Below are positions 3 to 20,893 of a stretch of 20,893 nucleotides of DNA, piece by piece; positions within the stretch are counted from its first letter, which is position 1; each line of letters begins with the position of its first letter. This DNA is from Thermoplasmatota archaeon (GTDB lineage Archaea > Thermoplasmatota > Penumbrarchaeia > Penumbrarchaeales > Penumbrarchaeaceae). Position numbers and translations under genes: made by a program. Under the pieces are notes generated by a model. That model did not search any database. It was given only the letters and a program-made list of their open reading frames with translations, and was not told the origin of the DNA. The stretch is from the NCBI GenBank assembly GCA_029762535.1, contig JARVGK010000045.1, forward strand, positions 1 through 20,893, given 5' to 3'.

Positions 3-410
3 CATAATCAGTTATTCACAGAAACGGCCCTGGTAAGAGTTCTATCACATCCCAGACTGTCAGTTATCGATCTGTTTATGGGAGATGATGATGTTCTGAG
101 TTTGATCGCATACGATCAGTATGGGATCGATATAACTGATGATTGCGAGATCTCCTGGTATGGGGATCACGTGATGATCGATGCCAATTCCGTCGTTCCC
201 GTATCCGGTGTGATACGGGTCCTTGTTGTATATGATGGTATAGAGCTTGAGGGCGAATATGATGCGGGTATTGACCCGGATTTTGTGGGAGTGAACGACC
301 CAATCACTTTGAAATTAATTATCGTGGGATCGATCCTTGTCCTTCTGATCGCAGGGATCCTCCTCATAGCGAGGAGGAGGGGATCCAGATCCGGGCTCTC
401 TGAAGAGTGA
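3..410 (+). CDS. 3' part of a membrane-anchored surface protein (5' end outside window)
   Basis: The frame is open from position 3 (HNQLFTETALVRVL...), so the ATG at 78 is probably internal. An acidic, beta-rich segment is followed by a C-terminal TM helix (LIIVGSILVLLIAGILLIA) and a basic tail (RRRGSRS). Confidence 0.8.
   Translation, partial: HNQLFTETALVRVLSHPRLSVIDLFMGDDDVLSLIAYDQYGIDITDDCEISWYGDHVMIDANSVVPVSGVIRVLVVYDGIELEGEYDAGIDPDFVGVNDPITLKLIIVGSILVLLIAGILLIARRRGSRSGLSEE
351..392 (+). repeat. 42-bp dispersed repeat, copy 1 (anchor-coding; copy 2 at 19188-19229)
   Basis: GCAGGGATCCTCCTCATAGCGAGGAGGAGGGGATCCAGATCC matches copy 2 at 40 of 42 positions. Confidence 0.9.
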
Positions 411-433
411 ACGTTTCTTCTCTTAAGGAATTG

Positions 434-481
434 ATCCCCCAGGAGAGGCTGTGCACCTACTGCTGGACCGGAAGGGATTGA
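434..481 (+). pseudogene. purF: Orphan 3'-terminal fragment resembling amidophosphoribosyltransferase (PurF)
   Basis: Reads IPQERLCTYCWTGRD-stop. This matches the PurF C-terminal G-[IL]-P-x-x-x-L-C-x-x-C-[WF]-x-G motif (Fe-S cysteines). The in-frame upstream sequence does not resemble PurF. Confidence 0.55.
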
Positions 482-580
482 GGTCCGTATGTTCTATGGG
501 GCTACGAAGGCGCAATAGGGACCTGAAGTGTAATGGGCATCCATTATAGGTCTGATATGTCATAGACCCTTTCGATAGGT

Positions 581-976
581 ATGGCCAAGAAGATCGAGAA
601 GACGAAGGAACAGTGGAAGAAGGATCTGACCCCCGAACAATACCATGTACTAAGGGAGAAGGGCACGGAGAGTCCTTTCACCGGGGAGTACTATCACAAC
701 AAGGAGACGGGGACCTACCTCTGCGCCGGATGCGGATCGGAGCTGTTCTCCTCCGAGCACAAGTATGACTCCGGATCCGGATGGCCGAGCTTCTTCCTGC
801 CTCTGAGGAAGGAGAACATAGAGGAGAAGGAGGATCCCTCCTTCTTCATGACCAGGACCGAGATCCGATGCGCTGGGTGCGGAGGCCACCTGGGGCACGT
901 CTTCGATGACGGGCCGGATCCCACGGGCCTGAGGTACTGCGTGAACTCCGCTTCCTTGAAGTTCAGGAAAGAATGA
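581..976 (+). CDS. msrB: Peptide-methionine (R)-S-oxide reductase MsrB
   Basis: [15 protein letters not shown], two CxxC zinc motifs (CAGC twice), [18 protein letters not shown] and catalytic LRYCVNS. Confidence 0.97.
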
Positions 977-984
977 AGCGGTCC

Positions 985-1926
985 TCAAGGACCCTTGCCC
1001 AGATTCCAACTCTCGACCTGCGATTGCGCGATCTTAACATCAGCGTGCTTCGCCGCCTCTTTCAGGACTATCCGGTATATGTTGTTGGAATGGAAGCGCC
1101 TTTTCCTAGCCTCCGTGACGAACCTTATCCCGATCCGTATGAACCTATCATCGAAACTGACATATATCATCGGCTCGACGTCCCTTTTGGGCAGATAATA
1201 TTTCTCACCGAGCGCCTCGATCTCCCTGAGCGCTTGAGGCGTTAGATCCGCACAGTAATCCTTGACATATTTTAACAGGGGCCCTATCAACGCCTCCCAG
1301 TTGCTGTCGAACGTAACCGGGACCACGATCTCCTCCCAGATGAAGTTGTGATCCTTGGTGTAGTTCTTCACCGCGTTCGACAGCACTGATGCGTTCGGCA
1401 CCAGGACGATACGCCCTGTGGCCTGATCCCCTTGCACCCATCCTCTCGTTTCCATCAGGGTCGTATACAGGATCCCTATGTCCATGACATCCCCGAACGT
1501 TTCGCCTATCTGTATCCGATCCCCAACTCTGTACAGATTGTTGAGCAGGATCAATATGCCGCCGGTGAAACCCTTGAATAGATCCTGCAGAGCTATCGCG
1601 ATGCCGGCGGCGAGAAGTCCGTATGCGACAAGGATCGCCTGAGTGTTCTCGATCCAGATCGCTATCAGGATAATGGCGATCAGGATGAGGAATACCAACG
1701 AGTTGGTCTTGCGGAAAGCATACCTTCTTTTGTAATCCCTCAGTCTATTATGGACAGAACCTTCGAGAACCACCTTGAAAAAAAAGAAGATGACATTGAT
1801 GGCCGCAAGGGATAATACGATCTTTTCGAGGTCGATGTCAGGGACCCAGAAGTTGATCGAAATAGAGGCGATCAAGCCGATGATGAGGCATGTTTGGATG
1901 AGGACGCTCTTTGCGAAGTTATTCAT
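985..1926 (-). CDS. mscS: Small-conductance mechanosensitive channel (MscS family)
   Basis: N-terminal TM helices, then GLLAAGIAIALQD, YRVGDRIQIG...GDVMDIGILYT and VLVPNASV...VKNYT signatures. Confidence 0.92.
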   Translation of the reverse strand: MNNFAKSVLIQTCLIIGLIASISINFWVPDIDLEKIVLSLAAINVIFFFFKVVLEGSVHNRLRDYKRRYAFRKTNSLVFLILIAIILIAIWIENTQAILVAYGLLAAGIAIALQDLFKGFTGGILILLNNLYRVGDRIQIGETFGDVMDIGILYTTLMETRGWVQGDQATGRIVLVPNASVLSNAVKNYTKDHNFIWEEIVVPVTFDSNWEALIGPLLKYVKDYCADLTPQALREIEALGEKYYLPKRDVEPMIYVSFDDRFIRIGIRFVTEARKRRFHSNNIYRIVLKEAAKHADVKIAQSQVESWNLGKGP

Positions 1927-19265: not shown

Positions 19266-19336
19266 ATCAACCTCCATCCCCTTCCATCCCGGCAGAAGAA
19301 TTGTCATCACAGGCATAATAACTATATAGATTATCC

Positions 19337-19361
19337 ATATAATATAATATAATATAATATA
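19337..19361. repeat. (ATATA)5 intergenic microsatellite
   Basis: Five perfect ATATA units read directly from the sequence. Confidence 0.85.
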
Positions 19362-19429
19362 TATTTATTTACCGGAAATTTACGGTGGTTTAATATATTT
19401 TCAAGATTATACCTACCAAGGTGATCCAA

Positions 19430-19603
19430 ATGAGAGGGATCCCGGGTGATTTAAGAAAGCAGTCGACAAAGAGCGGTCCTTCCTTTGAGGGGGAACTCAC
19501 GTCTGATAATAACTACGATGGAATGGTCAGCTTTGTGGAAGCATACTGGAAAGAAGTGGAGAATCTTTCGGGAACGGGACAGGATCCCGTCCTTTATCAA
19601 TGA
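19430..19603 (+). CDS. Small hypothetical protein (57 aa)
   Basis: AGGTGAT Shine-Dalgarno immediately before the ATG at 19430 and TTTAATATAT upstream. No recognisable domain. Confidence 0.4.
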   Translation: MRGIPGDLRKQSTKSGPSFEGELTSDNNYDGMVSFVEAYWKEVENLSGTGQDPVLYQ

Positions 19604-19640
19604 CGATATGGAGAATGGAGTATAAAACGAGGTGAAACGA

Positions 19641-20893
19641 ATGACATCCGAAAAGAGAACGAATGCGATCCTGAGCGGTATTTTGATCTTGATAATGGTA
19701 GGAACGATGCTCCTTCCATCTTCATTATTGGTTTCGGGTTTCTCAGATGATGGGAATTTCTTCGAGACCGATGATATTGCATTATGGTTAAATTTTAATG
19801 ATGATATATTTGACAAATCAAATAACAGATATGAAACTTGTTCTTATAACCCTCCAATATATCTAACATCAGAATGTTACGACGAAAAAATGTTCGGAAC
19901 TTTTTATGGGGATCCAACAACAAATTACTTAAATTATGTAAGAGTGACTGGCAATCAGGCAATAAATGATTTATCTTTGAATGATGAATCAACAGATTGT
20001 CATATCAGAATTTCATTATGGGTTAGATGCCAAGTTTGGGGATATCCACCTCCGGCCCCTCCATTGATAAGTCCTTATTCCTTGTTGAGTAAATCTGATC
20101 ATATAAATGGTGAATATGTTGGTTGGGATTTGCAGATAGATCAGGTAACTCTTACAGGGGCAATTATTTTCAAATTAAGTGTTCCTAACTATCCATATGC
20201 TCCGGTAGTATTAGATCTTGATCCAGTTATTGATTTTGGTGAATCATCATCATTTTTTTATGATGAATGGATTTTAATTCGCGCGGGATGGGATTTCTTC
20301 CCAAATGGAGGTTCTGAAGGGGAAGATTGGGGTATCGCTTTTTTAGAGGCCATATTTAAAAATGACTTTCAGAACCAAGAATTTTCAATTTATCGTGATT
20401 CTACCACCATATATAATTTACCACGATCCGCAAATCGAGATCTATATGTCGGAAGAGATTCGGAAATTGGAGTTCAGGAGACTAATTTCGCAGGAATGAT
20501 GGATCAGGTACAAATATCAAGGGGAAAGCCAGTAGAGATCTCAGAAACAGAATATGAAAGCGATCCGAGTTTGTATTGGGATCAGCGAATTTCAAGCAAG
20601 AACTGTTCGTTGCCCCATGAGGATATGATAGCGTATTACAACTTCGAGAACATAGAGGACAAGGCCTCGATACAATACGATCAAAACTGCACGATGTTCT
20701 TCGATGGAGCGCATCTGACCCCGCATAACGGGATCATAGAAGGCGGTACATACGATCCTGCTGAGACAACGAGCTGGGACGGGTCTACGGCATTCACCCT
20801 TGATGGCGATGTTTACGGCAGGGTCCTTGAGGATGTGGACGGATGGGATTCTTCGGGCGGGGGATTCATGCTAGGAGGTTGGTCCAAGGACAA
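19641..20893 (+). CDS. Secreted LamG/concanavalin-A-like jelly-roll domain protein, 5' part (runs off the window; absent from the ORF track)
   Basis: GAGGTGA Shine-Dalgarno at 19629-19635. Frame translated by hand is open to the window end. Signal peptide MTSEKRTNAILSGILILIMVGTMLL. LamG-like motifs LWLNFND, LYVG...FAGMMDQVQI, and a second unit beginning MIAYYNFE. Confidence 0.8.
   Translation, partial: MTSEKRTNAILSGILILIMVGTMLLPSSLLVSGFSDDGNFFETDDIALWLNFNDDIFDKSNNRYETCSYNPPIYLTSECYDEKMFGTFYGDPTTNYLNYVRVTGNQAINDLSLNDESTDCHIRISLWVRCQVWGYPPPAPPLISPYSLLSKSDHINGEYVGWDLQIDQVTLTGAIIFKLSVPNYPYAPVVLDLDPVIDFGESSSFFYDEWILIRAGWDFFPNGGSEGEDWGIAFLEAIFKNDFQNQEFSIYRDSTTIYNLPRSANRDLYVGRDSEIGVQETNFAGMMDQVQISRGKPVEISETEYESDPSLYWDQRISSKNCSLPHEDMIAYYNFENIEDKASIQYDQNCTMFFDGAHLTPHNGIIEGGTYDPAETTSWDGSTAFTLDGDVYGRVLEDVDGWDSSGGGFMLGGWSKD

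Follow-up and report, generated by a model that had tools for sequence, protein, structure and literature searches.

Introduction

The closest described counterparts of the pattern analyzed here are the highly iterated palindromes (HIPs) of cyanobacteria. HIPs are generally present at 1000-2000 sites per Mb (PMC4390886). The octamer GGGATCCC is the dominant octamer in Synechococcus OS types A and B, where it occurs 1160-1345 times per Mb with an observed-to-expected ratio (O/E) of 39-50 (Elhai 2015, PMC4390886). The inner hexamer of HIP1 is not enriched outside the octamer, and a cognate methyltransferase is found in every HIP genome (PMC4390886). HIP1 is also enriched in all reading frames, is conserved above control palindromes, and is quasi-periodic, with spacing on a scale of tens of kilobases (Xu et al. 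2018, PMC5861425). Two other systems are related. The hexamer TGATCA is a weakly over-represented oligomer in high-GC marine Synechococcus and Prochlorococcus (Elhai 2015, Table 2, PMC4390886), and the Halobacteria are rich in GATC and poor in CTAG, with high GATC accompanying an orphan methyltransferase of the Dam family (Fullmer et al. 2019, PMC6471742). Here we describe GATC-cored palindromes, GGATCC and GGGATCCC, in a 20,893-bp stretch of DNA (the window; contig 42, 51.6% GC) and in the genome that contains it, that of a Thermoplasmatota archaeon (G000).

A first-pass annotation of the window proposed that these sites are an archaeal analogue of HIP1, driven by methylation and repair or related to recombination. 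It named GGGATCCC as the variant of hot-spring Synechococcus, and the published counts bear this out (PMC4390886). We found that part of the proposed analogy holds: GGGATCCC is the top octamer, and it is enriched genome-wide and in all frames. In magnitude, discreteness and conservation the analogy fails, and no Dam-type or C5 methyltransferase was found. On balance, the excess is probably the upper tail of a strand-symmetric, lineage-specific, context-dependent signature of mutation and repair, and not a discrete iterated element.

Results

The excess in the window is real

The window contains 245 GATC, 39 GGATCC and seven GGGATCCC, and the half-sites GGATC and GATCC are present 97 and 92 times, respectively. 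Base composition predicts ~5.4 GGATCC and ~0.36 GGGATCCC. The first-pass annotation had estimated 35-40 GGATCC against 5-6 expected and had listed seven octamers against fewer than one expected; both estimates agree with our counts, and the position of every octamer was exact.

Shuffles of the window that preserve dinucleotides (n = 100) contained 19.3 ± 4.0 GGATCC and 1.8 ± 1.4 GGGATCCC, and none of the 100 attained the real count of either word. Because the shuffled counts are already high, the excess in the window is ~2-fold for GGATCC and 3.8-fold for GGGATCCC, not 7-fold and 19-fold. That is, the excess is real, and most of the raw fold-change is dinucleotide composition.

GGGATCCC is the most over-represented octamer in the genome

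The excess was not confined to the window. The assembly (2.96 Mb in 102 contigs, the longest 163 kb; 53.1% GC; 93% complete) has 31,418 copies of GATC, 2.74 times the number expected from base composition, making it the commonest 4-mer. There are 3,649 copies of GGATCC (4.5-fold) and 708 of GGGATCCC (12.4-fold), the latter corresponding to 239 per Mb (0.24 per kb). These O/E values were calculated by the same formula as in Elhai 2015. GGGATCCC ranks first of 65,438 octamers, both by count and by O/E. It is not a lone peak. The runners-up, with 563, 537 and 532 copies, all contain GGATC, and the lead of GGGATCCC over them is small. CTAG is found at 0.11 times its expected number genome-wide.

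Much of this pattern is visible in shorter words. The GA/TC and AT steps are favored (1.37- to 1.40-fold), as are the triplets GAT/ATC and GGA/TCC (1.65- to 1.9-fold), and TA is avoided. Under a first-order Markov model the O/E of GATC is 1.04. GGGATC and GATCCC are the commonest hexamers of the genome. For GGGATCCC, the O/E was 2.6, 3.4, 3.55, 2.15, 1.14 and 1.03 under Markov models of orders 1 through 6. Ranked by z-score, the octamer was eighth at order 1 and first at orders 2-4, narrowly above CGGGATCG/CGATCCCG.

The octamer is the overlap of enriched half-sites

We found that the octamer does not behave as a discrete unit. One-off octamers altered at position 1, 2, 7 or 8 were still enriched 4.6- to 5.8-fold, and those in which the GATC core was broken fell to 1.0- to 1.8-fold. 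Of all GATC sites, 13% are preceded by GG (1.87-fold). The first-pass annotation had raised the possibility that the enrichment would disappear once GATC frequency was controlled for. With GATC and independent flanks held fixed {N(GGGATC) x N(GATCCC) / N(GATC)}, the excess of GGGATCCC persisted but was only 1.28-fold, a coupling between flanks below that of several non-palindromic flank pairs. The 12.4-fold excess is thus roughly the product of 2.74 (GATC), 1.87 squared (the GG flank on each strand) and 1.28 (flank coupling).

Sequences around the sites were uninformative. Among the 706 fully flanked GGGATCCC sites, only G at position -1 and C at position +8 were preferred, and just 10 of the 706 lay in repeated 32-mers. 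We therefore rejected the idea that the sites are embedded in a longer repeat or a mobile element. The density of GGGATCCC is almost flat over local GC contents of 40-60% (0.22-0.31 per kb), its distribution is near-Poisson (index of dispersion of 1.32), and its short-range spacing is near-exponential.

The stretch with the lowest GATC content is an AT-rich island (C25:80001-100000) that carries a type III restriction-modification system (a Mod/Res pair). The island is 32-39% GC over most of its length. Its two most AT-rich 5-kb segments have no GGATCC and contain GATC at about the level that composition predicts, so the island looks like recently acquired DNA.

The excess acts on DNA and not through protein coding

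It could be that the sites reflect the proteins encoded (their amino acids, codon usage, or pairs of codons like GGG-ATC and GAT-CCC) or are a local accident of the window. Coding does contribute: relative to base composition, codon composition alone raises the expected number of octamers ~2-fold and amino-acid order raises it ~3.6-fold. We called 2,150 long open reading frames (ORFs), covering 90% of the genome, and shuffled synonymous codons within each gene, preserving the proteins and codon usage. Compared to these shuffles, the O/E was 1.31 for GATC, 1.50 for GGATCC, 2.03 for GGGATC, 1.80 for GATCCC and 3.0 for GGGATCCC (z ~28-36). Ranked by z, GGGATCCC (2.98-fold) was first of the 65,536 octamers, in a near-tie with CGGGATCG (2.95-fold) and GGGATCGA (2.86-fold). 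It was enriched in each of the three codon phases (2.95-, 2.69- and 3.39-fold). When codon pairs were also held fixed, using a first-order chain on codons, GGATCC was nearly accounted for (1.09- to 1.17-fold), but GGGATCCC was still in 1.96-fold excess.

Enrichment was strongest between genes. In the 0.3 Mb of DNA outside of ORFs, GGATCC was the top hexamer (8.1-fold) and GGGATCCC was the top octamer, 30.8-fold above composition and 6.0-fold above an order-2 model. The statement in the first-pass annotation that sites fall in several frames and between genes therefore holds for the whole genome. Because the excess is found in all phases and is stronger in non-coding DNA, it is not a codon artefact; because it extends over the whole genome and is also seen in a congener, it is not local to the window. 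We regard an origin in coding or in local accident as largely refuted and extremely improbable. The excess acts on the DNA itself, at synonymous positions of every frame and in non-coding DNA, and this word bias has shaped the choice of codons and codon pairs. Among Gly-Ile codon pairs, GGG-ATC occurs at 2.52 times, and GGA-ATC at 0.12 times, the product of the codon frequencies, an unusually strong codon-junction effect present in coding regions genome-wide.

There is also a second family of over-represented words in the genome, built on GGACC/GGTCC. AAGGACC occurs 1412 times over both strands and lacks an extended consensus. Under the first-order Markov model, GTCCTTGA/TCAAGGAC lead all octamers (5.2- to 5.4-fold), and GGACCT is 1.84-fold over synonymous shuffles.

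Methyltransferases do not track the excess

The first-pass annotation had linked the pattern to methylation. In a true HIP-like process, a methyltransferase would mark GATC or GGATCC, and methylation-biased repair by MutS/MutL would ratchet neighboring words towards GGGATCCC, as Elhai has proposed for cyanobacteria; the archaeal pattern would then represent a weak or early stage. Several features are consistent with such a process. The octamer is identical to the HIP variant of Synechococcus OS, is palindromic and GATC-cored, and is the top octamer in the genome, in all frames and in non-coding DNA. The central GATC deviates least, as in HIPs. There is a residue of 2- to 3.5-fold beyond tri-, tetra- and pentanucleotide composition and codon pairs. 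MutS1 is present, and so is an N6/N4 methyltransferase of class beta, the class that includes M.BamHI.

We searched for genes that might support this process. In the 93% complete genome, the models for Dam (PF02086), phage Dam (PF05869) and C5 methylases (PF00145) had no match, and the same was true of MutH and NucS. PF02086 was not found in G000, in the sister genus (G006) or in G002, and elsewhere gave only marginal partial matches; Dam was not found in any of the GATC-rich relatives of the family that were searched. The Pfam model of the BamHI endonuclease had no match, but neither did the control, making that search uninformative. PF02384 gave only a weak match, in a 214-aa ORF. PF01555 matched four proteins: the type III Mod beside Res in the AT-rich island, a 389-aa type II enzyme of class beta (C69:44029-45195), a 401-aa type II enzyme (C36:133794-134996), and a tRNA methylase.

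Neither of the two type II N6/N4 enzymes follows the excess from genome to genome. Both are present at 53-62% identity in most relatives regardless of GATC content, and both are widespread across bacteria and archaea. The 389-aa enzyme is kept in nearly all relatives with or without the excess, and the loci hosting its orthologues have GATC at 0.70 times, GGATCC at 0.61 times and CTAG at 0.09 times expectation; a role for it as the driver is not supported. Its nearest solved relative, TTHA0409, is without an assigned specificity. The 401-aa enzyme fares no better as a driver: it is present in relatives with GATC at ~1 times expectation (G004, G024 and G027), and no copy was detected in genus g2, which has GATC at 2.2 times. 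MutS was rejected as a correlate, being present throughout the class irrespective of the trait.

These findings weigh against a HIP-like process, as do three others. The octamer, at 239 per Mb and an O/E of 12.4, is far below the 1000-2000 per Mb and 39- to 50-fold of HIPs; its inner words are enriched outside the octamer, the opposite of HIP1; and the palindromes are not preferentially conserved (see below). We consider such a process unlikely. A more specific proposal is that this is the first HIP-type palindrome outside of the cyanobacteria, with GGGATCCC, the octamer of Yellowstone Synechococcus, kept in a Thermoplasmatota genus in the absence of a Dam-type enzyme by the class-beta N6/N4 methyltransferase together with bacterial-type MutS/MutL, or kept as a tag of self DNA. 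That is distinctly unlikely; if it were true, HIPs would arise convergently from a GATC-rich background.

Two observations concern these enzymes in their own right. The 389-aa enzyme (C69:44029-45195; L002:1093-2262, minus strand) has ~55%-identical counterparts in many bacteria and archaea of thermophilic and anaerobic habit, and no endonuclease was recognized beside its gene. It is a candidate conserved orphan methyltransferase and may be specific for CTAG. The 3' end of the gene for the 401-aa enzyme and adjoining sequence have short copies at C8:17925-18017 and C8:12048-12515, with 100% identity over 31 residues and 92-98% nucleotide identity to the contig end of the close relative described below. 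This suggests that the copies represent a duplicated or mobile junction.

Palindromes turn over between close genomes

Named homologues of Hef assign the organism to the Thermoplasmatota. Screening metagenome contigs with Hef did not turn up any close relative, an exact look-up of the protein of the HDAC gene had no match, and a scan of genome contigs with the methyltransferase gave distant hosts only. A protein search identified a relative in ENA metagenome scaffolds from one project (methyltransferase 92% and Hef 97% identical). We aligned it to C36:107217-135278 (91% identity) and to positions 5789-15011 of the window (94.8% identity), a total of 37 kb. Over this DNA the words are about equally dense in the two genomes: the relative and G000 have, respectively, 383 and 392 GATC, 57 and 47 GGATCC, and 14 and 10 copies of the octamer. 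The numbers of private sites, found only in G000 and only in the relative, were 95 and 86 for GATC, 10 and 20 for GGATCC, and 1 and 5 for the octamer. For example, the relative has an additional octamer at position 10772, where the window reads GGGGTCCC. Sites thus turn over between two close genomes, and the GG-flanked words are more often private to the relative.

We measured conservation as the fraction of all sites that are shared (Jaccard index), ranked against equally abundant words. The percentile was 65 for GATC, 56 for GGATCC, and 70 for GGGATCCC, for which power was low (n = 15). Conservation among orthologues, one of the checks suggested for the HIP analogy, therefore did not set these palindromes apart: GGATCC and GGGATCCC are not preferentially conserved over ordinary words, and gains roughly balance losses.

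These results bear on another explanation, that the octamer is a selected DNA signal independent of methylation, either a site for a protein that organizes chromatin or the chromosome, or a tag of self DNA for uptake or recombination. Such a signal would fit with the stronger excess in non-coding DNA (30-fold), with the absence of the word from the AT-rich foreign island, and with conservation of the half-sites GGGATC and GATCCC in the top 5%; in addition, HIP1 has lately been proposed as a signal for uptake or recombination. Against it are the free turnover of sites between close genomes, a near-Poisson distribution with no positional pattern, and a continuum of enriched related words where a single motif would be expected. 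No candidate partner protein was identified. None of the four indel junctions between the two genomes is at GGATCC, which speaks against recombination at the palindromes. We consider a selected signal very unlikely.

GATC richness is a family trait and the octamer peak is genus-specific

We sampled 30 relatives, estimating GC content from samples of 33-236 kb. All 30 contain GGGATCCC. It is present 48-170 times in members of the family, 361 times in the sister genus, 708 times here, and 8-87 times in other families. The corresponding O/E is highest here (12.4), followed by the sister genus (7.3); other members of the family have 1.5-3.2, and genomes outside of it ~1-2. The O/E of GATC is 1.3-3.7 within the family versus 0.75-1.4 outside, and that of CTAG is 0.05-0.30 within the family and 0.05-0.35 across all relatives sampled. 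The family as a whole is rich in GATC and poor in CTAG, and the peak at the octamer belongs to the genus alone.

Sites and genes in the window

All 39 GGATCC lie between positions 355 and 19915, and the seven octamers fall both in and between genes. The first (2167-2174) is within the HDAC/GNAT gene (1957-3738, minus strand). The second (6077-6084) is within the gene for the helicase-nuclease Hef, and the third (14571-14578) is within a 260-aa ORF (14158-14940, minus strand). The fourth (14952-14959) is intergenic. These last three are shared with the relative, and because the alignment to the relative continues beyond the site at 14952, that site is not a strain-level junction. Two more octamers are in the gene for a GLUG/PKD surface protein, one at its start (15325-15332) and one in the PKD part (18208-18215), and the seventh (19436-19443) is in the intergenic DNA downstream of this gene.

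Two local deficits of GGATCC had been claimed. The AT-rich GLUG block is not poor in sites: positions 15198-17500 hold three in 2.3 kb, the genome average. The deficit in the 1526-aa gene is there in number, with one GGATCC compared to five expected from its GATC count, but GATC itself is normal (43 copies, 2.5-fold) and the P of 0.04 is nominal, one of over 12 segments having been tested. In the 95%-identical relative this gene has four GGATCC, and the low count here is therefore chance turnover.

Some genes in the window merit comment. The Hef ORF (5764-8304, minus strand) encodes 846 aa if read from a TTG start. The 97%-identical gene of the relative was called at 757 aa, and the true start is probably ~89 codons downstream of the TTG. 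Antisense to Hef is a 483-aa ORF (6619-8070, plus strand) that probably arises as a side effect of preferred codons being reverse complements of each other (GAT/ATC, GGA/TCC and GGG/CCC). Two differences from the 95%-identical relative are at the level of strains. Positions 4440-5433 encode a nucleotidyltransferase/HTH pair resembling a toxin-antitoxin system, where the relative instead has 617 bp with a gene for a CARDB-domain protein. Between window positions 5771 and 5789 the relative has a 5.3-kb insert encoding a 1343-aa SBBP/Big_9 surface protein.

Discussion

Based on these results, we infer that the excess of GATC-cored palindromes probably arises as the tail of a general word bias. 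Favored GA/TC and AT steps, together with the triplets GAT/ATC and GGA/TCC, would make GATC the commonest 4-mer. An extra preference for G ahead of GATC would make GGGATC and GATCCC the commonest hexamers, and their overlap would make GGGATCCC the commonest octamer. The cause is most likely a neighbor-dependent bias in mutation or repair, or else weak genome-wide selection on properties of the DNA. Such a bias may have drifted gradually within the family, becoming strongest in this genus, and individual sites would carry no function.

Several of our results do not fit easily with this interpretation. At Markov orders 2, 3 and 4, no octamer is more significant than GGGATCCC (3.4-, 3.55- and 2.15-fold), and with codon pairs held fixed there are 599 copies versus 306 expected (1.7- to 2.2-fold per phase); a preference of 2- to 3.5-fold at the level of hexamers remains unexplained by these models. 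The flank coupling of 1.28-fold here, versus 0.78-fold in the sample from the sister genus, amounts to a slight preference for the complete palindrome, specific to this genus. When abundant hexamers are ranked by conservation (n = 69-85), GGGATC and GATCCC come out at the 95th and 97th percentiles, and this could reflect weak selection on the half-sites. Finally, the genome encodes two type II N6/N4 enzymes, either of which could conceivably methylate GATC or GGATCC.

Our results mainly calibrate the nature and strength of the HIP-like pattern in this genome. The word bias separates native from recently acquired DNA, and it may help in binning and in detecting islands in this lineage. The graded series from the family to the sister genus to this genus indicates that a GATC-rich background can sharpen towards one palindrome without a Dam enzyme. 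It offers a natural comparison that should be useful in asking how the HIPs of cyanobacteria arise.

How does the archaeal pattern compare to the systems already described? The octamer is identical to the HIP of Synechococcus JA-3-3Ab and JA-2-3B'a and, as there, is the commonest and most over-represented 8-mer. In both it has a GATC core, is enriched in non-coding DNA as well as in every reading frame, and is scattered through unique contexts. The differences are substantial, beginning with the host, an archaeon. Compared to the 1160-1345 sites per Mb and O/E of 39-50 in Synechococcus, the values here are one-fifth of the density and one-third to one-fourth of the O/E, and the range for HIPs as a class (~1000-2000 per Mb, O/E of ~24-300) is not reached. 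The excess of a HIP is expected to be qualitatively unchanged at Markov orders 1-2. Here most of the excess disappears under a dinucleotide model, the O/E falling from 12.4 to 2.6 at order 1 (3.4 at order 2), but by z-score the octamer still ranks eighth at order 1 and first at orders 2-4. Unlike HIP1, the inner words are enriched in nearly every context, so that the octamer is not a discrete unit, and in conservation the palindrome does not exceed control words. Unlike HIP genomes, this archaeon had no detectable methyltransferase of the DmtA/Dam type.

The Halobacteria are similar in being an archaeal lineage with over-represented GATC, strongly under-represented CTAG, and conserved stand-alone methyltransferases of the PF01555 type. 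They differ in that high GATC there accompanies a Dam-family orphan, which was not found in any of the GATC-rich genomes that we searched, and an extension to GGATCC or GGGATCCC is not described for them (PMC6471742). The TGATCA of marine Synechococcus and Prochlorococcus is a different word in a different phylum. In strength, however, it resembles the archaeal pattern: it is a modest GATC-cored hexamer within the top octamers, present at 52-1278 sites per Mb with an O/E of 8-21.

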